From Crocosphaera sp. (GTDB lineage Bacteria > Cyanobacteriota > Cyanobacteriia > Cyanobacteriales > Microcystaceae): DNA of 32,000 nucleotides. A program made the translations under genes and the position numbers. The notes beneath the pieces are model-generated. The model worked only from the letters and a program-made list of their open reading frames with translations. It made no database searches and was not told where the DNA came from. This document shows positions 299 to 24,514 of this stretch, piece by piece. Within the stretch, counting starts at the first letter, position 1. Each line of letters starts with the position of its first letter. The stretch lies in assembly GCF_030064895.1 (NCBI RefSeq), contig NZ_JASJEB010000061.1:9084-41083 (forward strand), written 5' to 3'.

Positions 299-721
299 TT
301 ATTCCAAAGAATCTAAGTAAGTGGTAATTTCTTTGATATAAAGAGTATATTGAGTTAAAGCTTTAGGAAAAGATTGATAAACAATTATATTATCAATTTC
401 TTCATATTGATGAACTAAACGATTACGCATTCCTGCTGATTGTGCCAATTTTCGAGATAGTTCTAAACTAATTATTCCTTGTTTTCCTGCTTCAATGAAA
501 GAATCATAATAAGTCGATGGTGTAATATTATGTAACTGTAATAGCAGATAACTATTAATATCTGAAGCAGCTTCTACTAATAATTGAATTAGTCTTTCAG
601 CAATTAACTGATAATCGAAGTTATCAAGATAGTCTGGTAAAGTGATTGATTCAAACTTTTGAAAACGATCTATATACTTTATCATCAATGTTAATCTAGT
701 TGTAATAATTTCTCTTTCCAT
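299..721 (-). CDS. hepT: HEPN-domain (DUF86) toxin of a type VII MNT/HEPN toxin-antitoxin pair
   Basis: 140 aa. R-x4-H HEPN motif is visible (RNRLVHQY). The size and all-helical character are typical. It lies 3 nt downstream of a minimal nucleotidyltransferase gene. Confidence 0.85.
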   Translation of the reverse strand: MEREIITTRLTLMIKYIDRFQKFESITLPDYLDNFDYQLIAERLIQLLVEAASDINSYLLLQLHNITPSTYYDSFIEAGKQGIISLELSRKLAQSAGMRNRLVHQYEEIDNIIVYQSFPKALTQYTLYIKEITTYLDSLE

Positions 722-724
722 TTT

Positions 725-1171
725 TTATAATCCTCTTTGCTGTAACCATAAGTAAATGCTTTGCTTTTCTGCTTGACGAAATTGAGCAGTATCAGCGTAT
801 TTTTTCCATGCTTGAATCCTAAATTTAATAAATTGACCTAAACTAGATTCATAAATAAGTTGACCATTTTTAGCTACTTGATAGCCAACTAAAGGAGAAC
901 AATGATTGAGATTGACCACATCAATCCTATCACTATTAATCTTAAAAATATCTCCTAATATCAAAGGTATCTCTAATTCTTTCCAAGCATCGCCTTTTAG
1001 ATAGTCTTCTTTTAAGGTTTCATCATACAAAACTGCAAAATCCCAGTCACTCTTAGTATGAGTTTTACCTGTTGCTTGTGAACCAAATAAGACTAACATT
1101 TTAAGATAAGGTATCTTTTCTGGAAGTTGAGAAGATAGAGAGTGTAACCTATCAACTGATAAATTAATCAT
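725..1171 (-). CDS. mntA: Minimal nucleotidyltransferase (MNT) antitoxin partner of HepT
   Basis: 148 aa. Pol-beta-type NTase signature is present (LVLFGSQATGKTHTKSDWDFAVL: G-S-x(n)-D-x-D). It sits immediately upstream of hepT in the same orientation. Confidence 0.85.
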   Translation of the reverse strand: MINLSVDRLHSLSSQLPEKIPYLKMLVLFGSQATGKTHTKSDWDFAVLYDETLKEDYLKGDAWKELEIPLILGDIFKINSDRIDVVNLNHCSPLVGYQVAKNGQLIYESSLGQFIKFRIQAWKKYADTAQFRQAEKQSIYLWLQQRGL

Positions 1172-1227
1172 TGTCTTATTTCCTTAAAGTTCATTTGAGG
1201 AAGAAAAGGGAAGCTTTTATACTGTAG

Positions 1228-1250
1228 ATATTCTATAAAATTTAGAATAT
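1228..1250. promoter_or_regulatory. 8-bp-arm inverted repeat ATATTCTA-N7-TAGAATAT in the region upstream of mntA-hepT; candidate operator
   Basis: Read directly: atattcta (1228-1235) and tagaatat (1243-1250). It lies about 60 nt upstream of the mntA start on the minus strand. A related tatagaata recurs near 1355. Confidence 0.3.
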
Positions 1251-1407
1251 AAGTTAATTAAGATTAGTGGACTTGACCAACCATTATTGGGGGTAAAGAC
1301 TACCTAAGTCTGTCCTTAACTCCGCAAGCTACCTGTTAGCTTCCCTCTGGTTTTTATAGAATAGAGAAAGGTCGATGAAAATCAACTTTTCTAATCAATT
1401 AAGGTGT

Positions 1408-1593
1408 TTATGCTGTTTTCATTTGATAGACATAAACATTATGAGAAACTTTAATCGTTTCAATGGGACATCCATCATCATCTCTTAGAGAATCAATAGC
1501 TGAACTGAATCGATGAGTGATAGGAATTAACTCCTCTTTAGTATGAGGTTTTCCGTCAGATAAAAGTTGACGTATTTTTTCTTTCTTGCTCAT
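1408..1593 (-). CDS. Small (61 aa) hypothetical protein, possibly winged-helix DNA-binding
   Basis: A strong Shine-Dalgarno AAGGAGG lies 5 nt upstream of the ATG (reverse complement of 1594-1610). The pattern IRQLLSDGKPHTKEELIPITHRFSSAIDSLRDD-GCPIE resembles BirA-N/HTH_11-type wHTH. No catalytic motif is visible. Confidence 0.5.
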   Translation of the reverse strand: MSKKEKIRQLLSDGKPHTKEELIPITHRFSSAIDSLRDDDGCPIETIKVSHNVYVYQMKTA

Positions 1594-1742
1594 ATGTCCT
1601 CCTTATTAATTTTTAAATGAGCAATCTCAAAATAACATAGGTCAATTAATTAGAACAAGGGATCGCTTAAAATTTTTATAAGTTCAGACTATTTAACCGT
1701 TAAATAAGTCAAGACATAAACTGTGGTATCCTGTGTCTAGTG

Positions 1743-1852
1743 AAGCAAACTTACTTAAGTCCCTATGAGGGATTGAAACAAATAAGTCTGAACTTATGTG
1801 TGGAAGCTTCACGTTGATTAAACTCAAGTTAATCCCTATGAGGGATTGAAAA
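1743..1852 (+). CRISPR. Degenerate mini CRISPR array: two 37-nt repeats and one 36-nt spacer
   Basis: R1 (1743-1779) is aagcaaacttacttaagtCCCTATGAGGGATTGAAAc. R2 (1816-1852) is gattaaactcaagttaatCCCTATGAGGGATTGAAAa. They match at 28/37 positions with 73-nt periodicity. The stem-loop TCCC-TATGA-GGGA followed by ATTGAAAC is the classic Cas6 hairpin plus 8-nt handle, which sets the orientation as + strand. No third repeat occurs at +/-73 nt. Confidence 0.6.
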
Positions 1853-1856
1853 ACCA

Positions 1857-4046
1857 CTAACAAATCCATGATTCACTCCCTTTTGACTTAAGACGGTAAG
1901 ATAAGGTATCTAATAACAATGCAGACTGTCCAAAAGCGATCGCATAGGGTGCAGTGAATTGATCCCTTCCCGTCTCGTCTATGGGGTAAATTTGGAAATG
2001 AATCGGTAATTGTAGGCTTTTTTTGACCGTTTCCACGTTATAAGGAACGATATAACAAACTAATCCCCGTTTTTTCAATTTTTTATTGATGTGATTTACC
2101 CATCGGTAACTCGGTTGATAAACGTGAATACCTTTCAACATCAAAACTTTCCAACTCTGTGCAACTTCTTGTAAATCTCCCCCATAACTAAAACGCCATT
2201 TCATCCGTTCTTCTCGATAACGATGTAACTTCATAAACCGCAAACAATAGTTAAACCGTCCTTTAGGAATGGGTTGATTCATGCGTTTTGCTGTTGCTTC
2301 CAACTGTTGCATAAATTCTACTTTGGTGATGGGTTCAACGTCTAAATTGCTTAAAATTCCTGGTAAATCATAAGTTTTAAACTTATCTAAGTCATATTCT
2401 TCTGTTAAATCATACAAACCGCATAAAAGGGAACTAGAACCCCGAAAGCTACTTGCTTCGAGTTCAATTAGACTTTTTTCTTGTCTTCCTGATAATTGTT
2501 CCCATTCTTCTCGCCATTGCTTGATACATCCCCACATTCTGCCAAAACGGGTATTAAATACCGTCTCAGATTGTTGTTTAAAGACTTCTCGACTTTCGGC
2601 AAATTGATCTCGAATGGTTTTATGATTTAGGCTAGAATAAATCGAACAAGATTGTATTCCCGACCATCGACTATAATATCCCCTAAAATCATTAATTTTG
2701 CGATATTTATCTTGAATTTGACTATGAAAGAAAGGACGATCATAGCTTCCCTCAAATTCCAAAGGGTGATCAGTTTGGGTAAAGAGTCTTTCTACCAAAA
2801 AGTTAGATGTTAAAGCATAAGCAGTAAAATTAGGGAATAAAATCGTTTTATCTTCCCTTTCATACCCGTCATGTCTTCCTAGTCGTCCTAAGCGTTGAAT
2901 AAAACTTCCTGAGTCTGCTGATTCAAAAATTAAGAAATTTATCTTAAAATCCACTCCAACATCAATGGTACTCGTTCCTAAGACTAAATCTGCATTCAGA
3001 GAATCATTTTTATTACTTTGTCCCGTTAAACCCGTATTCTCTGCAACCACCAGAGGATACAAAAATTCCTCAAACTTAGGTTTCAACCGCTTAACCGAGG
3101 CAATAGAATTAAGAATGATTGCCCCTTTGCTTTGGGGATATTGACTAAAATAATTGCGTATTAATTCCCGATTTTCCCATAACCATGTCTCGGATGCGCC
3201 ATAACCAGAAGTAAGGGGAACAAAAGTTAAATCAATCTCCCTTGCAACCTGTCGCCAACCCTCAGACTTTAATTGCTGTTTTTGGGCTTTTGTATCGGGA
3301 AAACGATATTTTCCTTGTTCATAGGGATTAATAATCTTATAATTAAAGCCTACCTTATCTAATCGCTCAATTAAAGCATTTTCTGGCGTTGCAGATAGAA
3401 ATAAATGCTTATGATCTCTATCTGTTACACGCATTAGTAACATAGTATTGATAATACTACCTACTTGTGGCGCACTAAGAACATGAAACTCATCATGAAT
3501 TAAGATGGTGAAAGTGGCATCTAGAAAACGCCAAAGCTTATCAGGAGCATCTTTAGGGGTGAGATAAGCATTTCTATGTAAATAGTGTAAAATATCGGGA
3601 TTTGTTAAGAGAATATCTGAATTATAAACTTTGTCCAAAATAGCTTCTGCTTTTTTTATACTTTCCCTTTCTGCGTACAATTCCAATAACGCACCACTCA
3701 AACGATTAACACGGGTAAGATCATTCGGTTGAAATTGCTCTATATAACTCTTAATTTGGCTTTCCTGATCCCTTGCTAGTTCATTAGTTGGGTAAAGTCC
3801 CATTGAATAGCGAATACATCCATTTCCTTGTTCTCCCTGCATTGCATCTAAATAAGCAGACAGACTTTTACCATCTCCTGTCATCGCTGTATTAACAATG
3901 ACATCAATATTAGGATCTTGTAAGGCTTTCCACGTTTCCAACTGATGCCACGATAATCGCCATTTTTTAGGCAATTTCAGCGAATTAGGAACATTTTCGG
4001 CTGGACAAGAATAAACTGGTTTCAAATTGACACTATAGAGAGTCAT
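1857..4046 (-). CDS. cas3: CRISPR-associated SF2 helicase Cas3' (type I-D-like, no HD nuclease domain)
   Basis: 729 aa. Helicase motifs are present: motif I TAMTGDGKS, motif II IHDEFH, motif V GTSTIDVGVDF and motif VI QRLGRLGRH. The N-terminus (NLKPVYS...LSWHQLETW) is typical of cyanobacterial I-D Cas3'. The gene is adjacent to CRISPR repeats and a divergent WYL regulator. No HD motif is visible. Confidence 0.75.
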   Translation of the reverse strand: MTLYSVNLKPVYSCPAENVPNSLKLPKKWRLSWHQLETWKALQDPNIDVIVNTAMTGDGKSLSAYLDAMQGEQGNGCIRYSMGLYPTNELARDQESQIKSYIEQFQPNDLTRVNRLSGALLELYAERESIKKAEAILDKVYNSDILLTNPDILHYLHRNAYLTPKDAPDKLWRFLDATFTILIHDEFHVLSAPQVGSIINTMLLMRVTDRDHKHLFLSATPENALIERLDKVGFNYKIINPYEQGKYRFPDTKAQKQQLKSEGWRQVAREIDLTFVPLTSGYGASETWLWENRELIRNYFSQYPQSKGAIILNSIASVKRLKPKFEEFLYPLVVAENTGLTGQSNKNDSLNADLVLGTSTIDVGVDFKINFLIFESADSGSFIQRLGRLGRHDGYEREDKTILFPNFTAYALTSNFLVERLFTQTDHPLEFEGSYDRPFFHSQIQDKYRKINDFRGYYSRWSGIQSCSIYSSLNHKTIRDQFAESREVFKQQSETVFNTRFGRMWGCIKQWREEWEQLSGRQEKSLIELEASSFRGSSSLLCGLYDLTEEYDLDKFKTYDLPGILSNLDVEPITKVEFMQQLEATAKRMNQPIPKGRFNYCLRFMKLHRYREERMKWRFSYGGDLQEVAQSWKVLMLKGIHVYQPSYRWVNHINKKLKKRGLVCYIVPYNVETVKKSLQLPIHFQIYPIDETGRDQFTAPYAIAFGQSALLLDTLSYRLKSKGSESWIC

Positions 4047-4112
4047 CGATTTTTCCTTACAAACTGTACCGAGTTACTTGCTATATCCATTATGCTCAGG
4101 CAAAATAGAAAT

Positions 4113-4127
4113 GTAAATAGTATTTAC
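4113..4127. promoter_or_regulatory. Perfect palindrome GTAAATA-G-TATTTAC in the cas3'/WYL divergent promoter region; candidate operator
   Basis: Read directly. It lies 32 nt upstream of the WYL-regulator ATG (4159) and 67 nt upstream of the cas3' ATG (4046, opposite strand). Confidence 0.3.
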
Positions 4128-4158
4128 TGACTTTTTTAAATAAAGTATACGTACACTT

Positions 4159-5016
4159 ATGGGAAGGAAAGGAGAATCGATCACCCTATCAATTAGGGAA
4201 CAGGATAAAAAGCAACTAGAAGCTTTAGCAGACTCTTATGGAATGACTTGGGGAGATAAACCCAATATTTCCCGACTAATGAAAGCGATCGCCCAAGGTA
4301 AATTACGCATTGCGCCTAATCATGATTGGACACAAGAACGTATTAGAGCATTAGACACTGCGAGAAAAGCGTTGATTGATGCAGGGAAAATGGACGAAGC
4401 TATTGAAATGGCAAAAATGCTACAAGAGCGTAGTGAGTTAACTATTCCCTTTCAACGGGAAATTTATAACTTTTTAGAATCGCCTCAACCATCTTGGCGA
4501 CAAAAAATAGACAATTTTATCCGTCGTCAACAACCGTTTTGCTTGACATACCAAGATGCAAGGGAAGTTAACTGGCAATTCACCGTCCGTTTTGCTGTTG
4601 TTCAATTCATAGAGAAGCGACAATATTTAGTCTGTCGTACTGATGAATCGGAAGGCAATCAAGACATACCGGAATTATCCCATAATTGGACATTACGATT
4701 AGATCGAATTGAAGATGCTACTGTTGCGCCTATTAACACACCTTGGTTAGATAATTTAGAACTTATTGAAGTGTCTTTTGAGTTAAGAGAAGGACTGGTA
4801 TTTGCTTATCGAAGTAAGCCAAATGACTTAAACATAGAAGATATTGAAGGGACACAACCAAAAAGAAAAGTTACAAGACAGATTTTCAATACCTTTTGGT
4901 TCTTTCGTGAAATTGCTTCTTATTATGGTGATTGTGTAATTATTGAACCTGAAAATGTACGCCTTCGTTATCTTGAGAAAATCAAATGTTTATGTGATCA
5001 ATATGAAGTCCAATAG
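4159..5016 (+). CDS. WYL-domain transcriptional regulator with an N-terminal ribbon-helix-helix-like DNA-binding segment (CRISPR-associated, Sll7009-like arrangement)
   Basis: 285 aa. The N-terminus SITLSIREQDKKQLEALADSYGMTWGDKPNISRLMKAIAQG looks RHH/CopG-like. The central HNWTLRLDRIEDA matches the WYL-domain core. Divergent placement next to cas3' mirrors the known Synechocystis I-D locus layout. Confidence 0.65.
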   Translation: MGRKGESITLSIREQDKKQLEALADSYGMTWGDKPNISRLMKAIAQGKLRIAPNHDWTQERIRALDTARKALIDAGKMDEAIEMAKMLQERSELTIPFQREIYNFLESPQPSWRQKIDNFIRRQQPFCLTYQDAREVNWQFTVRFAVVQFIEKRQYLVCRTDESEGNQDIPELSHNWTLRLDRIEDATVAPINTPWLDNLELIEVSFELREGLVFAYRSKPNDLNIEDIEGTQPKRKVTRQIFNTFWFFREIASYYGDCVIIEPENVRLRYLEKIKCLCDQYEVQ

Positions 5017-5166
5017 CCCTTTCATCCAAGGTATTTCTTTATTTTTAGCTAATTGAGAGCAAAGTTCTCGGATATCACTACGATTTGTCCTCTTGTTATC
5101 CATCCAATAAAGGAGGCAATAATTACCCGCAAATTGTCCCATTAATCATGTACTCAATCGCTTCTC

Positions 5167-5535
5167 CTAAGAGTTTCGTAGTAATTGTTTCACCGTTCCT
5201 AAGAATTCATCATGATCAAAAGGCTTGATAATATAAGCATCAGCCCCCTGTTTTAAACCCCAATAACTATCCACCTGTGTGTCTTTGGTGGAACAAAGAA
5301 TTACGGGAATATTTTCCGTTTTAGGATCGCTTTTAATACTACGACAAGCCTGATAACCATTCTTTTTAGGCATTACCACATCTAGAATAATCAAATCGAA
5401 AGCTAGAGATTTCACCTTATCTAGTGCTTCATCCCCATTTACGGCGGTGGTAACAGAAAAGTTATTTGCTTTGAGTAAATCAGAAATTATTTGAAGTTGA
5501 GTAGGGCTATCATCGGCTACTAGAATTGTAGGCAT
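5167..5535 (-). CDS. Single-domain CheY-like response regulator receiver
   Basis: 122 aa. The acidic pocket DD (ILVADDS), phospho-acceptor D (LIILDVVMP), conserved T (CSTK) and K (IIKPF) are all present. There is no output domain. Confidence 0.85.
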   Translation of the reverse strand: MPTILVADDSPTQLQIISDLLKANNFSVTTAVNGDEALDKVKSLAFDLIILDVVMPKKNGYQACRSIKSDPKTENIPVILCSTKDTQVDSYWGLKQGADAYIIKPFDHDEFLGTVKQLLRNS

Positions 5536-5815
5536 AAGCAGTCACTGAAGATTGACACTCTCCTTAATTCTAGTAAGGAGATTCATAACGTATCCCAATA
5601 GGGAGTCATTATCTTGTTTTCACAAGTTCCCAGGCTCACCACGTTTCCCTATTTAGGCGCAGTGATATTTCCTTAAACCCTGCTGATTCAGGTGTTGGGC
5701 GTAAACTTTCCGAAAGTCTTTCGGTAGGTTTTAAAGTCTTGTACTGACCGTACTGATTTTACCATATTTTGCTTGCTGGCAACATTCTAGAAAATGGGAT
5801 TATTTCTCAACATTG

Positions 5816-13404: not shown

Positions 13405-14292
13405 ATGAATATTAGTCACTTACTACGACAATATGAACAAGGCCGCCGAGACTTCCCAGAACTTAATTTAGCTGGGGTTGATTTATCTAAAGTCATGTTG
13501 ATTTCTGTTAATTTAACCAAATCAAACTTAATGGGAATTAACTTTAGTCGTGGATTTCTTACTAAATCTAATTTAAGCCAAGCTAGTTTGAATTGGAGTG
13601 ATTTAACCTACGCTAAAATGAGTGAATCTCAATTGATTGACACAGATTTGACTAAAGCTAATTTAACCGGGGCGTTTATGGTTAAATCTATTTTAAAGTC
13701 GGCTAAGTTAAGTGGGGCTAATTTATCTTATAGCAATTTTCGGGCTGCTAATTTATCTTATGCTAATTGTTGTGGGGCTAATCTTCACCAAATTAACCTG
13801 AGAGAAGCCAATCTAACAGGGGTTAATTTTAATTGGGCAAATCTATCTAAAGCCCGTCTTAGTTGTACTATCTTACAAAAGGCATCATTTTTTGGCAGCA
13901 ATTTAAGCTCTGCATTTATTAAAGAGGCCGATCTAAGACATACAAACTTAGAACAAGTTAATTTTCAAAATTCGCGCCTTAGCTATAGTAACCTAGAAGG
14001 GGCAAATCTTCAAGGGGCAAATCTTCAAGGGGCTAAATTGCGTTATATTAATTTGCGTGAGGCTAATTTACAAGGGGCAAATTTAAGGGATACGGATTTA
14101 GAAGGGGCTGATTTAACGAACGCGATTGTTGAAAATGCTGATTTTACCAATGCAAGATTTAGCGAAACTAGAGTAATTGGAACTTACTTAAAACACAACA
14201 CCATTACAGAAAATTTATCAGAATTACAACTTAAAAAAAATCCAAACTATGCAGTATCTTTTGAACTTTTATCAAGAGGTTTTGCTGTTTAA
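13405..14292 (+). CDS. Pentapeptide-repeat protein
   Basis: About 45 consecutive A(D/N)LxX pentapeptides are present (ANLTGAFM, ANLSYSNF, ANLQGANLQGAKL...). I prefer the ATG at 13405 (MNISHLLRQYEQGRRDF) to the TTG at 13333. Confidence 0.85.
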   Translation: MNISHLLRQYEQGRRDFPELNLAGVDLSKVMLISVNLTKSNLMGINFSRGFLTKSNLSQASLNWSDLTYAKMSESQLIDTDLTKANLTGAFMVKSILKSAKLSGANLSYSNFRAANLSYANCCGANLHQINLREANLTGVNFNWANLSKARLSCTILQKASFFGSNLSSAFIKEADLRHTNLEQVNFQNSRLSYSNLEGANLQGANLQGAKLRYINLREANLQGANLRDTDLEGADLTNAIVENADFTNARFSETRVIGTYLKHNTITENLSELQLKKNPNYAVSFELLSRGFAV

Positions 14293-14297
14293 TAAGA

Positions 14298-14320
14298 CCC
14301 CACCGTTAACGGTGAGGTTT
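14298..14320 (+). terminator. Hairpin CCCCACCG-TTAA-CGGTGAGG followed by TTT, between convergent genes
   Basis: Read directly. The 8-bp stem has one mismatch. It lies 6 nt after the pentapeptide gene stop. Confidence 0.45.
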
Positions 14321-14393
14321 AAATAAGAGGGGCAAATCAAATTATGTTATTGGTTTGTTATGGTATTTTATGTCGATTTGCCTTCTCCATGTC

Positions 14394-15491
14394 TTATTTA
14401 CTTTTTTGTTGATTTTTAGCTTGTTCCATAGCTATTTCTTTCATCGCTTCAAAGGAATTTCGATTAGAGGTTCCCTCAATAGCTTTCACAGCTAAATCTT
14501 GTACTTGTTTCAAGGATGCTTCTAATTGTTGAGAGAGACTTTGTTGACGAGTTTCTTGATTTTGTATGGTTTCTTCTAAGGCAGCAATTCTTAATTCATA
14601 ATTCTGTTTTTCTCCTTCTATTTCTTTGGTTCTTAAGTCTGATTTTATTTTAGCTTGATAGTTTCCTATACCTTTACCTTCTTCTTTACCTTGTTTTATT
14701 TTTTGTTCTAATTCTTCTTCTAATTTTTTCACTTTATCTTTTGCTTCTTCTTGTTTTTTCTCTTGTTCAATAATACTATCTTCTCTTTCTTTCCATTGTT
14801 TTTCCTGGGTTTCTTTACTCTCTTTTAATTCTTGATATAAGTTTTGTTTTTCGGCTTCATATTCTTCTTTATTTATTTGTCTTTCGAGTTCTAAGTTATA
14901 AATATATTGTTCTTCATCTCGTTTTTTATTGGTCAAATATTCCTGATCTCGTTCTCGAATTTCTCGGTTACGATTTAGTTTTTCTTTATGCCAATTTTTT
15001 CGTAAGTCTTCTATTTCCTTCGTTAAAATTTCCTGTTGTTTATTAAACTCTTCTTCATTGGTTTTTGCTGTAGTTTGATATTCTTCTACTAAGCGAGATA
15101 AAGTTTCATTTTCAATGGTTTCTATTTGATGTAATTCTGCTAATTCTGCTAACTCTTCTGTGGAAAATTTATTGAGTTCTGCTAATAAGTCAGCTTCTGT
15201 CATTAATTGTTCCGATAAATGACTAACTGCACTACCAAAATTACTTTGTAATTTCTCTAAGTTTTCAATGGTTAAAGTAATATTATTATTAGGGATTTCG
15301 GTTTGAGTTTTCATTATCTTTTTCTGAGAGGAGTTATCGGGTTTATTATCTTGAGAAACTGTTGATTTGACTGTAGACTTTTGTGTTTGTTGTTTTACTT
15401 GTTTTTCTAATGCTGATTTTTCTTGCATTAGTTCGTCATAAGCTTCCAATATTTGTGCTTTTGTACTTTTAGAGTTGATTTTTTGAGCCAT
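14394..15491 (-). CDS. Coiled-coil-rich protein (365 aa), function unknown; paralogue of the upstream gene
   Basis: Long E/K/Q-rich heptad-type sequence with no TM segment and no enzymatic motif. It shares N-terminal (KAQILEAYDEL vs KEQILSNFNQFL), central (YNLELERQINKEEYEAEK vs YEIQLLRKVENDEYEEKK) and C-terminal (YELRIAALEETIQNQ...LAVKAIEG vs YELKIQSLETKINQN...LALRAFQG) blocks with the neighbouring gene. Confidence 0.7.
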   Translation of the reverse strand: MAQKINSKSTKAQILEAYDELMQEKSALEKQVKQQTQKSTVKSTVSQDNKPDNSSQKKIMKTQTEIPNNNITLTIENLEKLQSNFGSAVSHLSEQLMTEADLLAELNKFSTEELAELAELHQIETIENETLSRLVEEYQTTAKTNEEEFNKQQEILTKEIEDLRKNWHKEKLNRNREIRERDQEYLTNKKRDEEQYIYNLELERQINKEEYEAEKQNLYQELKESKETQEKQWKEREDSIIEQEKKQEEAKDKVKKLEEELEQKIKQGKEEGKGIGNYQAKIKSDLRTKEIEGEKQNYELRIAALEETIQNQETRQQSLSQQLEASLKQVQDLAVKAIEGTSNRNSFEAMKEIAMEQAKNQQKSK

Positions 15492-15522
15492 GATTTTTAC
15501 CTCTTAATTAGTGAAATTATCT

Positions 15523-16500
15523 TTAGTTATTGCCTTGAAATGCCCGTAAAGCCAAGTTTTGTGATTGCTCTGTTGTATTTTGTAACTGGGTAGTTAACTC
15601 GGTAATTTGTTCATTATTTTGGTTTATTTTTGTTTCTAAGGATTGGATTTTTAATTCATATCCTTGTTTGCTTAATTCCCACTCTTTTTCAATTAAGTTA
15701 ATTTTAACTTGAGCATCTCTATCAGCTGTTTTAATGGCTTCTCCTTTGGCTTTATTGTATTCTTCTTTAACTTTTTCCTCTAATTGAGTAATTTTTTGCT
15801 CATTTTCTGTAAATTCTGTAGCTTGTTGATTTAAGACATTTTCTCGCTCGTTCCAAGCTTTTTCTTTTGCCGTATTCAACAGTTGTAATTCTCTTTCTTG
15901 TTTACGTTTTTTTTCCTCATATTCATCATTTTCAACTTTTCTTAGTAGTTGAATTTCATATTGATGATTAGCTATTTCTTGTTCCCGTTGTTTATTGATT
16001 AATTCAGCTTCCTCTTCTATTCTAGTTGTAACTTCTTGGTTCTCTTTTTCCCAAATAGCTCTAGTTTTTTCTTGTTCTTTTTCTATGGTTTCTTTTTGCT
16101 GATTACTGTCTTCTCGTAATCGTCTCAATTTTTCTTGATGTTCTTGTCTTAGAATATAAAGAGAATCCGCTACTAATCTAACTTGACGTAATTTTTGAAG
16201 TTCTTCTTGTTTAACTGTAATAGCTTTTTTTAGTTCATCTAATTTGGTAGATTCTGTTGTTAAATTATCGGATAAATTTTGAATGATTTGGCCAAAATCT
16301 AGTTGCAAAGAAGCCATACTATTAACAATATTGTTAACTGTATATTCCCCTGCTTTGTCTAGTAATTGCTGATTTTTTTCCTTTTCTAATTCCTCCTCTT
16401 TGGTAATAATACTCGATTCTTGTTGATTATATTTGTCTAAAAATTGATTGAAATTAGACAAAATTTGCTCTTTAGTCTCTGGAAATGTCTCTTGTGTCAT
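15523..16500 (-). CDS. Coiled-coil-rich protein (~325 aa), function unknown; paralogue of 14394..15491
   Basis: Same evidence as its paralogue. I prefer the start at ATG 16500-16498 (MTQETFPETKEQIL...). The 27 extra N-terminal residues in the ORF track run through a heptamer tandem repeat and look non-coding. Confidence 0.7.
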   Translation of the reverse strand: MTQETFPETKEQILSNFNQFLDKYNQQESSIITKEEELEKEKNQQLLDKAGEYTVNNIVNSMASLQLDFGQIIQNLSDNLTTESTKLDELKKAITVKQEELQKLRQVRLVADSLYILRQEHQEKLRRLREDSNQQKETIEKEQEKTRAIWEKENQEVTTRIEEEAELINKQREQEIANHQYEIQLLRKVENDEYEEKKRKQERELQLLNTAKEKAWNERENVLNQQATEFTENEQKITQLEEKVKEEYNKAKGEAIKTADRDAQVKINLIEKEWELSKQGYELKIQSLETKINQNNEQITELTTQLQNTTEQSQNLALRAFQGNN

Positions 16501-16584
16501 AATCTTAATTTTCTTCGATAAAAGTGCTGAAAAGTTGAGCAACCCATAGCAAAAGTTGACCAAACATTGAACATTGAACATTTT

Positions 16585-16638
16585 GGTTTCAAGCCTCTCC
16601 CTAAAGGGAGAAAGAAGTTTGGGAGAGGTTTCAAGCCT
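16585..16638. repeat. Small structured repeat: direct repeat GGTTTCAAGCCT (x2) flanking alternative CTCTCCC/GGGAGAG hairpins
   Basis: The direct repeat copies lie at 16585-16596 and 16627-16638. The local hairpin is TCTCCC-TAAA-GGGAGA (16596-16611). The alternative pairing is CCTCTCCC (16594-16601) with GGGAGAGG (16621-16628). Confidence 0.6.
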
Positions 16639-20701: not shown

Positions 20702-20733
20702 TAGTATAGAAAAAAGCTCAAAAGCAAAACCTT

Positions 20734-20759: not shown

Positions 20760-20794
20760 AGTAATGTCCTAATTTTTGATTTTTCTAGCAAAAT

Positions 20795-23700
20795 CTAGAT
20801 AATTGCACCATGTTTTTCAAGACATTTTGCTATTTCTGGTTTTATTCCAGTTGCATTTCTAAAATCAGCTTTAAGAACATTTTGAAAATGGTGAATTACA
20901 TCTACAACTTTAAATTTAATAATGTCAAATATTATCACATGACCGCTTCTAAGTAAGATAAATACATTCTGAGTAGGTACATCAAAAAAGACTTCTTTAA
21001 CACCAGAGACTATCATATTAGGGTGATATAAATTTACACAATCACTATATTTACTATCATAAATAATTTGTTTAGTTATAAAATCAATCAAGACAAATGA
21101 TGTATGAGAAGCCGCACAAATTAATGAACCCTCGTCATTAATAGCAATTTTCCTTACTCCATCAACAGCAAGTTCATCTATGATACTAAGGTCATTTGGA
21201 TTTAAAAATAAAATTCTATCTTTTTCTTTATTAGTTCTGTTAAAGAAATAATATTGAACAGCCACCAATTTTCCTGAAGGATGAAACAGAATATTTTTAG
21301 AATTGAATCTATTCCATGCTCTGTTTGATTTTACTTTTAAACTGTCAATATCCCATACTATAAGTTCAGAACTGCTCGAACTAGCTAATAGATTTTTATC
21401 AGGAATAATTGCAATACTTGTTATAGTATCCTGGTGTTTTGTGAGAACTTTGATCTCTTTATTTAACAAGACATCGTATACATAAATATCAGAATTTTGA
21501 CACAATAAAAACAACAATTTTGAATTAGACGTAAAAGTAAAATCTGATGTCAATCCATTTAAGTTAAGTTCTACATCAGAAATTTGAATAGTTGATATTT
21601 TTTCTAGTGTTTGTGAGTCTCTAATCTCAAAATTATTGTATCCACTGCTGAATAAAAATTTTCCATCTGGACTATGTTTTATATCCCCATTCCATGTAAT
21701 CTTTGTTTCAATTCTCGTTATTATTGACTGTAACTTTAAGTCCCATAAAATAATGTCATCAAATGAAACTATTGCCAATTGAGGTTTATGTGGATGAAGA
21801 GAAAAGGCTCCATCAAATTGACGAATCTGAAATTCAACTCCACTTAAATTGGTATATTGAAAGTTTGAATTGGCAATTTTTACATCACCAAAGTTAGAAT
21901 CTTCTAAATTAGCCCTTTCAAAACGAGTATTTGATAAGTCTAATTCAATCTCTCTGTAAATTCTTAAGTCATAATTATCTAATAAACTGAGGTCAAGACC
22001 AGTTAAATTTGTATCTGAAAAGTCATTATCTTTTAATGAATCTGGATTGATAAAAGAAAGCAAAGTGATAATATTACCTCCAACAAATCCTACTTCTTTT
22101 GCAGATTTGCCCCGTGTATTTTCAATTATTTTTAATAGCCTTATCTTAAGTTCTTCTTGATCTGAAATAAGCATATCCTCCATTAAAACAATAATTGCTG
22201 GAGTTAGCTTTTGCTTGCCAAAAGTTTCTGCCAATAAACAAATATCTTCAGCCACAAACTCTTGCAGATTAGCATTATTTCTCTTTGATTCTGGCAGAAA
22301 ATAGGATGACCAACTATAATTCTGTGGCGTAGTATTTACACCCAAATTAGATTTTGCTTGTGCTAGTTCTATAAAATCTGGTGCTAAAATTCCTAACTCT
22401 GCCGCAAACTTATAAGCAACAAAAAACTCTAACAAAGAACGATGAGCCGGACTATAATCTCCTTGCGCATTACGAATTAGCATAGTTTGCCCCATCATGT
22501 CATAATGCCAGTGATCTAAGTCCTTTTCTTCCTGCACAATAGAACCAAAAAGACGACGAATTCGCTCTGGAAAAAGCCGATAATTTAAACTCATAGCATC
22601 TGTTGAAAGCATCTCCCATGACAATTCACACAAGAAGTAAAGCTTATCTGATAGGGAAGTAAAAGTTCGTTCAGCTTTGATATCTCTTTGCATTTTCTGT
22701 TTAACTGCATAGAGATAAACTCGTGATATATCTATTGGTCTCTCGGCTTCAATATCTGGTAATGCTTCCAAAATTAGATCGCTCATCACCGGACGACTAG
22801 CTAATTCTAATAGTTGGGGATTACTCATCACTTTGTCAACAGTTTCTGGCTCAGCTTCAGAGGACAAAACTTGCTGGATTTGTTCTTCGGTAAATTTCTC
22901 AAGTTCCAGCACTTCAAATTGAGGAGCTTCTGCGATCAAAGCAGTAGTAGATGCTTGTAATTCACCACTCAATAAAGCTCGTCCTTCTTTCGCTTCTGGA
23001 AAGTGTTCTGTTCGACAGGTGAGAATAACTTTTGTTCCTGGAACAACAACCTTTGCTAGTTCCCAAAAATTGTTGATCATGTCTTGACGGCTAATTCGTG
23101 TTGCCATTTCATCAAAACCATCAAAAATAAGCAGTAATTTGCCCATACGGTTGAGTTGTTCAAAAGCATCGTAATGAGGCAAAGGTATTTTGTATTTACG
23201 AAAGAAAAACTCTGAAAACAAAGATTCCACACTGACAGCTTTTGCATAGTCTCGCAAAGGAATAACCAAAGGTAAACGAGGAAGTGTAACCCCGCGTTTT
23301 TGACAATCTCGATAGCGTTGTATTGTAACCCAGGCATAATGTAGAGCAAACCATGTTTTTCCTGTGCCAAATTCACCTAAAATCGAGATATGTTCTTTCA
23401 CAGGATCGTCTAACCAACGGTCGATATAACCATCTATCCAACCATCTTTTTCTCCATAAGAACTGACTGCAATTTTCTTTTGAGTATTGATGTCTATTTC
23501 TTCTTTAGTACAAGCAAGAGGAACATACTTTGTGTCAATTTTTCTCCGTTCTATCTCTCTCTCTAACCAGTCAAGATAGCCACTAAAGTCGGCATCCTGG
23601 GCTAAAATTTCATCAAAGGTATAGCAACTTAAAAAATCATTTTCTTCTTTCTCAACTTCATGAAGTGCTGCTGGTGCAATACGACGAGTAGTTACCAACC

Positions 23701-24514
23701 ACCCCTCATCAGTCTGTCGCTCTTCTACTGACTGACGTAAACACATTACATCTCGGAGTCCAACCTCACCTTCAATTCCTCGCACAAGAACCCGATCATA
23801 TCGATTGCGCCGTACAGGAATATTAATAATCCACTCAAAAAAGTTTTCTCTCCAAATTTCATCTTTTTCAAAGCGATAACCCAAGGTTTCAAACCAACTA
23901 CGCATTTCTTGAGCAAGGGCGATCGTTTGAAATTTATTTGTTTGTATGGATGGAGTTAATTTATCTACGTTTTCTGCTAGAGTCAATCGAGCTATTTCCG
24001 TTCTTATAGCTTCTATATTTGGCAGTCTTTCAAGTTTTTCATGAAGACTGATCATAGTCTGGTGCAAAGAGTCTATTTTGTGATTCGTTAGTACGTCAGC
24101 AGGAGTTCGGCTGCATTTGACGACGTTTATAAATATTACGAGAAATGCTGCAATTTCTCGCTTAATATTAATGCCTAAACTTTTAACTTCATCTCCTAAT
24201 GCATAACCTTCCACATAATGATCAACCTCGGAGAGCAAAATTGAGGAATTGCAATGATCAAATGCTTTACGAAAAGATTTTTTGATTGTTTCTTGCTCGA
24301 ACAATTGTAAAAATTGCTTTGGTTTACCAACACCGTACTCTACCAAAGCATAAGCATAAACACCTGTGAAATCATTAGGGGGATGATCAGGTTCAAGATT
24401 AAATTGTTTTAATAATTTGATGACAGTTTGACTACGTTCTGCTTTATTTTTAATAATTGGACTGCTGATACTGGCGATAGTCCCTATTAATCTACCTATA
24501 GGAATTGATGACAT
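20795..24514 (-). CDS. STAND NTPase: N-terminal helical region + REase-like segment + NACHT + helical arm + pentapeptide repeats + WD40-like beta-propeller
   Basis: 1239 aa. Walker A GEFGTGKT lies at aa 380-387 (nt 23354-23377). The NACHT-type Walker B LLLIFDGFDEM lies at aa 460-470 (nt ~23105-23137). The segment at aa ~203-285 (WFETLGYRFEKDE...RVLVRGIEGEVGLRDV...EGWLVTTRRIAPAA) resembles Mrr-type restriction endonuclease N-domains seen on cyanobacterial NACHT proteins. Pentapeptide repeats span aa ~829-896. Degenerate WD40-like blades span aa ~900-1215 (LWD, HSPDGKFL, VYD, VWD). Confidence 0.8.
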   Translation of the reverse strand: MSSIPIGRLIGTIASISSPIIKNKAERSQTVIKLLKQFNLEPDHPPNDFTGVYAYALVEYGVGKPKQFLQLFEQETIKKSFRKAFDHCNSSILLSEVDHYVEGYALGDEVKSLGINIKREIAAFLVIFINVVKCSRTPADVLTNHKIDSLHQTMISLHEKLERLPNIEAIRTEIARLTLAENVDKLTPSIQTNKFQTIALAQEMRSWFETLGYRFEKDEIWRENFFEWIINIPVRRNRYDRVLVRGIEGEVGLRDVMCLRQSVEERQTDEGWLVTTRRIAPAALHEVEKEENDFLSCYTFDEILAQDADFSGYLDWLEREIERRKIDTKYVPLACTKEEIDINTQKKIAVSSYGEKDGWIDGYIDRWLDDPVKEHISILGEFGTGKTWFALHYAWVTIQRYRDCQKRGVTLPRLPLVIPLRDYAKAVSVESLFSEFFFRKYKIPLPHYDAFEQLNRMGKLLLIFDGFDEMATRISRQDMINNFWELAKVVVPGTKVILTCRTEHFPEAKEGRALLSGELQASTTALIAEAPQFEVLELEKFTEEQIQQVLSSEAEPETVDKVMSNPQLLELASRPVMSDLILEALPDIEAERPIDISRVYLYAVKQKMQRDIKAERTFTSLSDKLYFLCELSWEMLSTDAMSLNYRLFPERIRRLFGSIVQEEKDLDHWHYDMMGQTMLIRNAQGDYSPAHRSLLEFFVAYKFAAELGILAPDFIELAQAKSNLGVNTTPQNYSWSSYFLPESKRNNANLQEFVAEDICLLAETFGKQKLTPAIIVLMEDMLISDQEELKIRLLKIIENTRGKSAKEVGFVGGNIITLLSFINPDSLKDNDFSDTNLTGLDLSLLDNYDLRIYREIELDLSNTRFERANLEDSNFGDVKIANSNFQYTNLSGVEFQIRQFDGAFSLHPHKPQLAIVSFDDIILWDLKLQSIITRIETKITWNGDIKHSPDGKFLFSSGYNNFEIRDSQTLEKISTIQISDVELNLNGLTSDFTFTSNSKLLFLLCQNSDIYVYDVLLNKEIKVLTKHQDTITSIAIIPDKNLLASSSSSELIVWDIDSLKVKSNRAWNRFNSKNILFHPSGKLVAVQYYFFNRTNKEKDRILFLNPNDLSIIDELAVDGVRKIAINDEGSLICAASHTSFVLIDFITKQIIYDSKYSDCVNLYHPNMIVSGVKEVFFDVPTQNVFILLRSGHVIIFDIIKFKVVDVIHHFQNVLKADFRNATGIKPEIAKCLEKHGAII

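Follow-up and report, generated by a model that had tools for sequence, protein, structure and literature searches.

A clade-11-type NACHT protein with a single degenerate propeller, a probable NLR-like conflict sensor of Crocosphaera sp.

The stretch of Crocosphaera sp. DNA analyzed here (contig NZ_JASJEB010000061.1), referred to as the window at its whole length of 32,000 nucleotides and used as the frame for all gene coordinates, carries on its minus strand a gene for a large NACHT protein (Table 1). The identical protein is present in public databases (P0001) under the name 'NACHT domain-containing protein [Crocosphaera sp.]'. From its domains, its relatives and the selection acting on it, we conclude that its product is probably an NLR-like conflict sensor in one polypeptide, a relative of the NLR immune receptors of animals that belongs to bacterial NACHT (bNACHT) clade 11, a reading to which we assign a probability of about 0.6.

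Pfam matches and AlphaFold2 models agreed on the order of the parts, which is a helical head, a restriction-endonuclease-like (REase-like) module, NACHT, a helical arm, pentapeptide repeats and a propeller. The same order, together with a STAND/NLR-type logic, had been proposed in a preliminary description made from the sequence alone; the match to the NACHT family and the two intact Walker motifs bear out that logic. The columns of the NACHT nucleotide-binding domain were almost invariant over 42 homologues. Within the winged-helix and helical-arm region, the stretch PAHRSLLEFF was invariant, and its histidine (H691) appears to be the counterpart of the conserved winged-helix histidine of NLR proteins, presumably H443 in NLRC4. 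In the model of the N-terminal part, residues 6-210 were all-helical and residues 214-306 formed a compact alpha/beta unit. A scan of the protein against NCBIfam gave no match above cutoff, and a phmmer comparison of residues 1-829, which we call the chassis, with PDB sequences gave no match.

The C-terminal sensor has two components. By register scoring, the pentapeptide stretch consists of three units at residues 830-844, a 13-residue break and nine contiguous units at residues 858-902 (in the Pfam definition, a pentapeptide repeat protein has at least eight contiguous units and forms a quadrilateral beta-helix). The total of 12 units is close to the 'about 13' counted in the preliminary description. 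This part of the AlphaFold2 model was of low confidence, with a predicted local distance difference test score (pLDDT) of 33-58. Pfam WD40/propeller families matched residues 905-1086. The AlphaFold2 model of residues 800-1239 contained 28 strands in seven sets of four (residues ~904-1207), and Foldseek retrieved seven-bladed WD40 propellers (Gbeta, WDR61 and TLE1) at E ~1e-17, in agreement with the roughly seven degenerate blades seen before. The C-terminal tail is common to the long-form relatives described below (…NITGVKGLT…LKALGAVE). No tandem repeats were found at the DNA level in the propeller-coding part. When the sensor alone (residues 820-1239) served as the query for homologues, two marginal WD40 matches came back and the protein itself was missed. 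The search was uninformative, probably because it was swamped by WD40 words at the candidate step.

Table 1. Features of the NACHT gene and of other loci in the window. The ratio of nonsynonymous to synonymous substitution rates (dN/dS) refers to the comparison with P0002. Identities to long forms are those to the closest long forms (P0005-P0011), the distant P0083, P0041 and P0101 being lower in head and chassis; identities to short forms are those to P0003, P0004 and P0008.
Feature	Residues	Position (nt)	Strand	Basis or remark	dN/dS	Identity to long forms (%)	Identity to short forms (%)
Whole open reading frame, bNACHT clade-11 type protein	1239 aa	20795..24514	minus	ATG start			
NNH5 (NACHT N-terminal helical domain 5)	7-138	24101..24496	minus	Pfam PF22736, E 7e-48	0.27	70-74	46-51
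Helical linker	139-199	23918..24100	minus	Model helices 146-163, 167-185 and 189-210, low pLDDT; poorly conserved	0.62		
NA-iREase1	200-304	23603..23917	minus	Pfam PF22722, E 4e-41; REase fold without (D/E)xK motif	0.10	80-84	62-69
NACHT nucleotide-binding domain	376-551	22862..23389	minus	Pfam PF05729, E 3e-9, 37.5 bits (cutoff 26.7)	0.09	84-87	78-82
Walker A GEFGTGKT	380-387	23354-23377	minus	Motif intact			
Walker B LLLIFDGFDEM	460-470	23105-23137	minus	Motif intact			
Winged-helix and helical arm of NACHT module	552-829	22028..22861	minus	Invariant columns in alignment	0.26 (helical arm)		
Pentapeptide-repeat stretch	830-902	21809..22027	minus	Pfam Pentapeptide PF00805 at residues 859-895, 26.1 bits (cutoff 20.2)	1.02		
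Seven-bladed degenerate WD40-type beta-propeller	904-1207	20894..21805	minus	Model and Foldseek; predicted sensor	0.89	19-23	39-40
Conserved C-terminal tail (…FRNATGIKPEIAKCLEKHGAII)	1208-1239	20798..20893	minus	Alignment			
Deletion or rearrangement scar		20787..20811		Sole part of the gene kept in L082			
XisF-like large serine-recombinase homologue	440 aa	24911-26233	minus	Directly upstream of NACHT gene			
Stand-alone pentapeptide-repeat protein	319 aa	13333-14292	plus	PF00805, E 2e-58, six stretches			
HepT/MNT toxin-antitoxin pair		299-1171					
Type I-D CRISPR Cas3' helicase		1857-4046		TIGR03158, 334.8 bits, above cutoff			
Divergent WYL/WCX-like protein		4159-5016					

Relatives of the NACHT protein fall into at least 1789 clusters at 90% identity, nearly all of them cyanobacterial. 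The best 120 clusters were all cyanobacterial, were 50-60% identical to the window protein and had the same Pfam set, and relatives are encoded at more than 422 loci of species-representative genomes, often at several per genome. The domain names NNH5 and NA-iREase1 (iREase below) originate in the bacterial NLR study of Kibby et al., whose Table S1 contains the exact string 'NNH5+NA-iREase1+NACHT+Pentapeptide+BetaPropeller' under clade 11, in the rows for WP_083776698.1 (Acaryochloris marina), WP_096653106.1 (Calothrix parasitica) and WP_096678658.1 (Fischerella). The layout of clade 11, a variable head followed by iREase, NACHT or nSTAND4, Pentapeptide and WD40/propeller, spans Cyanobacteria, Actinobacteria, Myxococcales and Firmicutes, and in clade 10 the combination of Pentapeptide and propeller occurs even in Mortierella fungi and one foraminiferan. 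In clades 10 and 11 it is standard for a pentapeptide stretch to separate NTPase and propeller, so the composite sensor is not the unusual, uncharacterised one it had been taken for. The protein from the window shows the clade-11 traits, namely a NACHT domain with Walker A and B motifs, an adjoining N-terminal iREase, and a C-terminal pentapeptide stretch followed by a propeller. Its identical architecture and its 50-60% identity to cyanobacterial proteins that match the rows of Table S1 in architecture and species point to membership in clade 11. It is an ordinary member of a known, catalogued family rather than a new defence architecture.

To characterize the N-terminal domains, residues 1-330 were searched by HMMER over 1.84 billion representatives, which yielded 539 clusters and showed that NNH5 and iREase occur independently of each other. 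The iREase-NACHT proteins that lacked NNH5 carried caspase (three cases), trypsin-like protease, HTH or EAD4 heads, one iREase-NACHT protein had NNH5 plus DUF4062, and Table S1 of Kibby et al. adds TIR, SIR2, PNPase and calcineurin-like heads. NNH5 therefore sits in the variable effector/adaptor slot of iREase-NACHT proteins. Outside NACHT proteins, NNH5 heads NB-ARC/TPR proteins, nSTAND5 proteins with a metallophosphatase (calcineurin-like phosphoesterase), AAA_16 NTPases and a Ser/Thr kinase, and it lies inside an EAD1-CHAT-NNH5-Macro protein (P0158, P0173, P0223 and P0267 are the EAD1-CHAT-NNH5-Macro, Ser/Thr kinase, nSTAND5-phosphoesterase and NB-ARC/TPR types). Kaur et al. (2020) described effector-associated domains as one non-enzymatic domain carried both by an NTPase/sensor and by separate effectors, usually encoded by adjacent genes. 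The occurrence of NNH5 on both STAND sensors and effector-type proteins suggests an adaptor role and supports the inference that NNH5 is an adaptor in the sense of these homotypic domains.

In a Nostoc sp. locus (L056), positions 713-5539 encode a further STAND NTPase with an NNH5 head, and a highly repetitive WD40 open reading frame comes after it. This NTPase gene and the clade-11 homologue form a local paralogue pair on opposite strands, the former about 4.5 kb upstream of the latter. A similar second NNH5 match was present at another locus (L022).

Selection was compared across the domains by calculating dN/dS with the Nei-Gojobori method between the window gene and the gene of the 85%-identical relative P0002 (on L084); dS was 0.13-0.20 across all regions. 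The values (Table 1) indicate that the iREase-NACHT chassis is under strong purifying selection. Substitutions in the propeller relative to P0002 affected 39% of loop residues and 22% of strand residues (Fisher p = 0.001). An immune or recognition receptor would be expected to evolve in this way, its chassis under constraint and its surface for ligand binding diversifying.

By analogy with NACHT proteins of other clades, for which Kibby et al. showed antiphage activity, the gene may have an antiphage function. In the mechanism that we propose, modelled on characterised STAND/NLR proteins, the propeller would bind a protein ligand, which could come from a phage or be a host protein in a perturbed state, and the pentapeptide solenoid would act as a rigid spacer or offer extra surface beside it. 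Ligand binding would lift autoinhibition, upon which the NACHT module would bind NTP and oligomerise and so bring the N-terminal NNH5 heads together. Because the protein has no enzymatic head, its output would most likely be proximity-driven: the clustered NNH5 domains could recruit other NNH5-bearing proteins homotypically (kinase and CHAT-Macro types exist), or the NNH5 helical bundle could be toxic by itself. The iREase would be a platform without catalytic activity, structural or regulatory in role and possibly able to bind nucleic acid, and not an effector.

Several results weigh against the conflict-sensor reading. No clade-11 row in Table S1 of Kibby et al. bears a bNACHT designation, so no clade-11 member was assayed in that study, and a literature search found no experimental paper on the clade-11-type family. 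A scan against PADLOC-DB v2.0.0, Avs models included, returned zero families at E <= 1, and relatives of the protein were sought on IMG/VR viral contigs and none were found. Foldseek gave no convincing structural match for the NNH5 model. A second NNH5 gene was found nearby at only 2 of ~80 loci and was another STAND paralogue each time, so that an adjacent NNH5-bearing partner effector was not supported as the rule. Two further points are that the immediate neighbors of the NACHT gene are housekeeping genes, with no defence island, and that the family is concentrated in filamentous cyanobacteria, where a role in cell death or self-recognition fits too.

These last two points also speak for the main alternative, which we consider possible but improbable. 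It holds that the protein regulates programmed cell death, kin or self-recognition, or stress signalling in response to an endogenous ligand, comparable to fungal HET-E/NWD. The filamentous cyanobacteria in question are multicellular and have several paralogues per genome, both Kaur et al. and Kibby et al. tie such systems to multicellularity and apoptosis-like processes, and sister architectures have caspase heads. However, the copy in the window belongs to a unicellular Crocosphaera. Furthermore, the variable presence of the gene among close relatives and the dN/dS of ~1 in its sensor are in line with an arms race against a fast-evolving ligand from outside, although allorecognition would fit these observations as well.

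The REase-like module raised another possibility, that it is itself the effector and that DNA cleavage is switched on by oligomerisation, as proposed for bNACHT25. The model of residues 214-306 resembles EcoT38I, MspJI, EndoMS and the N-terminal domain of Rpb5, all of which have REase-type folds (Foldseek, weak E-values), the module retains the conserved acidic residues E209, E216, E227 and D240, and bNACHT25 does use an Mrr-like REase head. When the secondary structure of the model and an alignment were compared by eye, however, the positions of the PD-(D/E)xK triad mapped to E227, L243 and R245, so that no clean triad is present and the (D/E)xK site reads as a hydrophobic residue and arginine flanking the variable position. 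All three residues were invariant or nearly so among the 42 homologues and proteins with diverse heads. The similarity to Mrr_cat was confined to the C-terminal, non-catalytic half of the iREase (E 0.007, 16.9 bits against a cutoff of 21), and the curated Pfam name of PF22722 is 'NACHT-associated inactive Restriction Endonuclease 1'. Catalysis by the iREase has likely been lost, judging from these residues. The iREase also co-occurs with true enzymatic heads (caspase, trypsin, TIR, SIR2 and PNPase) and always adjoins the NTPase, never lying at the variable terminus. Because the heads vary while the iREase-NACHT chassis is kept, the iREase is a constant module fixed beside the NTPase, outside the effector slot, and we regard an active nuclease as very unlikely. 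The preliminary description had recognized an Mrr-like fold without a clean triad at about residues 203-285, which the Foldseek matches and the family name corroborate, and its caution about nuclease activity was well judged; the variable head position is taken not by this segment but by NNH5.

Most relatives are ~1475 residues long, with ~6-7 pentapeptide units and ~14 canonical WD40 repeats. A minority, the short form, which includes the window protein, P0002, P0003, P0004 and P0008, is 1230-1250 residues long and has a longer pentapeptide stretch, a single degenerate propeller and the same conserved C-terminal tail. Comparison of identities domain by domain (Table 1) showed that the head and NTPase are closer to the long forms, whereas the sensor resembles that of the short forms only. 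This mosaic suggests either that sensor modules were exchanged by recombination or that an ancestral sensor was replaced in the long-form lineage.

A short and degenerate sensor could also be a remnant in a gene that is becoming a pseudogene. The sensor has a dN/dS of ~0.9-1.0 and the lowest GC content (28%), and it has lost most of its WD40 sequence signatures. The protein falls ~240 residues short of most relatives, and one close relative carries a deletion of the gene. Nevertheless, the 410-codon sensor frame is open, which at its base composition has a chance of ~8e-17; the other two frames contain 37 and 59 stops, and all indels in the sensor are in-frame. Strands were preserved over loops, the propeller model is confident, and at least four other lineages retain the same short form at 40% identity. 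Decay of the sensor is rejected on the open frame and on the contrast between strands and loops, and we consider this explanation highly improbable.

Beside one short-form gene, that of P0003, we observed a ParE-toxin gene with a small upstream open reading frame, followed by a DUF1902 gene (L085, 14228-14799). The ParE-toxin gene and the small open reading frame are likely a toxin-antitoxin pair. The surroundings on L085 are otherwise of housekeeping type, with a ribosomal protein operon and an XFP phosphoketolase gene.

The NACHT gene in the window is flanked by genes for a NIL-ferredoxin, a thioredoxin, an Mrp/NDH antiporter subunit, a GHMP sugar kinase and a nucleotidyltransferase. Synteny was compared over the best 80 of the more than 422 related loci. 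The neighbors seen in the window were found beside homologues at 0 of these 80 loci, and a recurrent partner gene or operon was rejected, as the only recurrent neighbors reflected vertical synteny within Microcoleus. No Crocosphaera species representative was among the best 80 loci, and several genomes carry more than one paralogue. One related locus (L081) has the NACHT gene together with those for the GHMP kinase and the recombinase. Two metagenomic contigs of close relatives (95-98% nucleotide identity) match the window up to ~20709-20724 and then diverge. In one of these two (L082, 95% nucleotide identity), only 25 nucleotides of the extreme 3′ end of the NACHT gene are kept, directly followed at 655-801 by a cobalamin riboswitch (RF00174, 53.3 bits); this joint is a deletion or rearrangement junction. 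The absence from L082 and the lack of fixed synteny indicate that the NACHT gene is accessory and was lost in a near relative. Two findings that the preliminary description had named as refuting its proposal did not arise: the N-terminal segment has a nuclease-like fold by Foldseek, and synteny is not fixed over the 80 loci. A fixed housekeeping role, as a signalling ATPase of the cyanobacterial cell, for which one could cite the very high conservation of the first 830 residues across genera and the synteny kept within Microcoleus, is hardly credible given the lack of synteny beyond that one genus, the absence of Crocosphaera species representatives among the best 80 loci, the variable copy number and the deletion in the close relative.

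Other features of the window were noted in passing. In the XisF-like recombinase homologue directly upstream of the NACHT gene, a Recombinase domain and, weakly, a zinc ribbon were matched, and the score with NF041201 was 135.8 bits, far short of the cutoff of 375. No Resolvase catalytic domain was detected in its N-terminal ~150 residues, where the usual R-V-S motif reads F-Y-S-E-P by eye, and on this basis the homologue may be catalytically degenerate. The defence-type genes at 299-5016 form a cluster ~17 kb from the NACHT gene. The region 14001-16600 combines low GC content (0.30-0.31) with a strongly negative AT skew (-0.30 to -0.39), and the minus-strand open reading frames at 14394-15491 and 15523-16581 matched no significant Pfam family. 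The stand-alone pentapeptide-repeat protein is unrelated to the pentapeptide stretch of the NACHT gene. Promoter and terminator scans were at background level, and no Rfam family matched in the window.

The finding adds little to what is catalogued: the architecture, the N-terminal domains and the sensor already had names, and the protein was already annotated as a NACHT protein. Its interest lies in clade 11 itself, which is large, rich in cyanobacteria and enzyme-less in its commonest form. A short, single-propeller NACHT gene from a marine nitrogen fixer of ecological importance, with a close relative that shows loop-focused diversification of the sensor, is a compact candidate for study, and such a study could address the output of the NNH5 head and the role of a dead REase fold beside an NTPase. 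A more far-reaching, joint proposal, which we consider doubtful as a whole, concerns both ends of the protein. At the N-terminus, NNH5 would be a homotypic, Death-domain-like adaptor wiring many kinds of STAND sensor (NACHT, NB-ARC and nSTAND5) to separately encoded and unlinked NNH5 effectors (a Ser/Thr kinase and a CHAT protease-Macro protein). At the C-terminus, the short degenerate propeller would represent a distinct ligand specificity, recombined between chassis lineages, for sensing a cyanophage or stress protein. If this were true, the NNH5 wiring would constitute a dispersed signalling network and not a self-contained defence gene, and a unicellular marine diazotroph could sense a cyanophage or stress protein through the short propeller.

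Among known systems, Avs/AVAST proteins (Gao et al.) share the tripartite order of effector or adaptor, STAND NTPase and repeat sensor. They belong to non-NACHT STAND clades with mostly TPR-like sensors. Given the PADLOC result, the earlier label 'Avs-like' is loose. The validated bNACHTs (bNACHT01, bNACHT25 and others) have in common with the window protein a NACHT module with the conserved winged-helix histidine, a single-gene layout and, presumably, an oligomerisation-driven output. They differ in clade, in their heads (NNH1 or an active Mrr-like REase) and in their sensors (short C-terminal extensions, LRR or HEAT), and their sensing mechanisms, among them that of DnaJ perturbation for bNACHT25, are not transferable to the window protein. 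Mrr-type PD-(D/E)xK endonucleases share with the iREase the alpha/beta core fold and the weak Mrr_cat match of its C-terminal half, but the iREase has hydrophobic-x-Arg in place of (D/E)xK, and its catalysis is presumed lost.

Apaf-1 and the bacterial AP-ATPase-WD40 proteins likewise place a WD40 propeller sensor after a STAND NTPase; Apaf-1 appeared among the PDB sequence matches of the family profile through its propeller only. Its NTPase is an NB-ARC module with a CARD or caspase head, without a pentapeptide stretch or iREase, and NB-ARC was absent from the 25 listed of 37 matching Pfam families, among which NACHT was present. Fungal HET-E/NWD proteins combine NACHT with a hypervariable WD40 sensor, and the clade-10 proteins of Mortierella and endosymbionts also have a pentapeptide stretch between NTPase and propeller. 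Both differ in their heads (HET and others) and in lacking the iREase, and the fungal proteins act in allorecognition. The family-profile search of PDB sequences was dominated by WD40 proteins, and its closest solved sequence, the highly repetitive WD40 propeller 2YMU (E 1e-134), represents the long-form sensor; the match was driven by long-form members of the alignment, and the chassis of the window protein has no match among PDB sequences. The nearest known system is bNACHT clade 11 (Kibby et al. 2022/2023), with an identical domain string, cyanobacterial hosts and stand-alone genes. Within it, the window copy is distinguished by one degenerate seven-bladed propeller, ~12 pentapeptide units and a unicellular Crocosphaera host, whereas most relatives have the ~14 canonical WD40 repeats and ~6-7 pentapeptide units of the long form.

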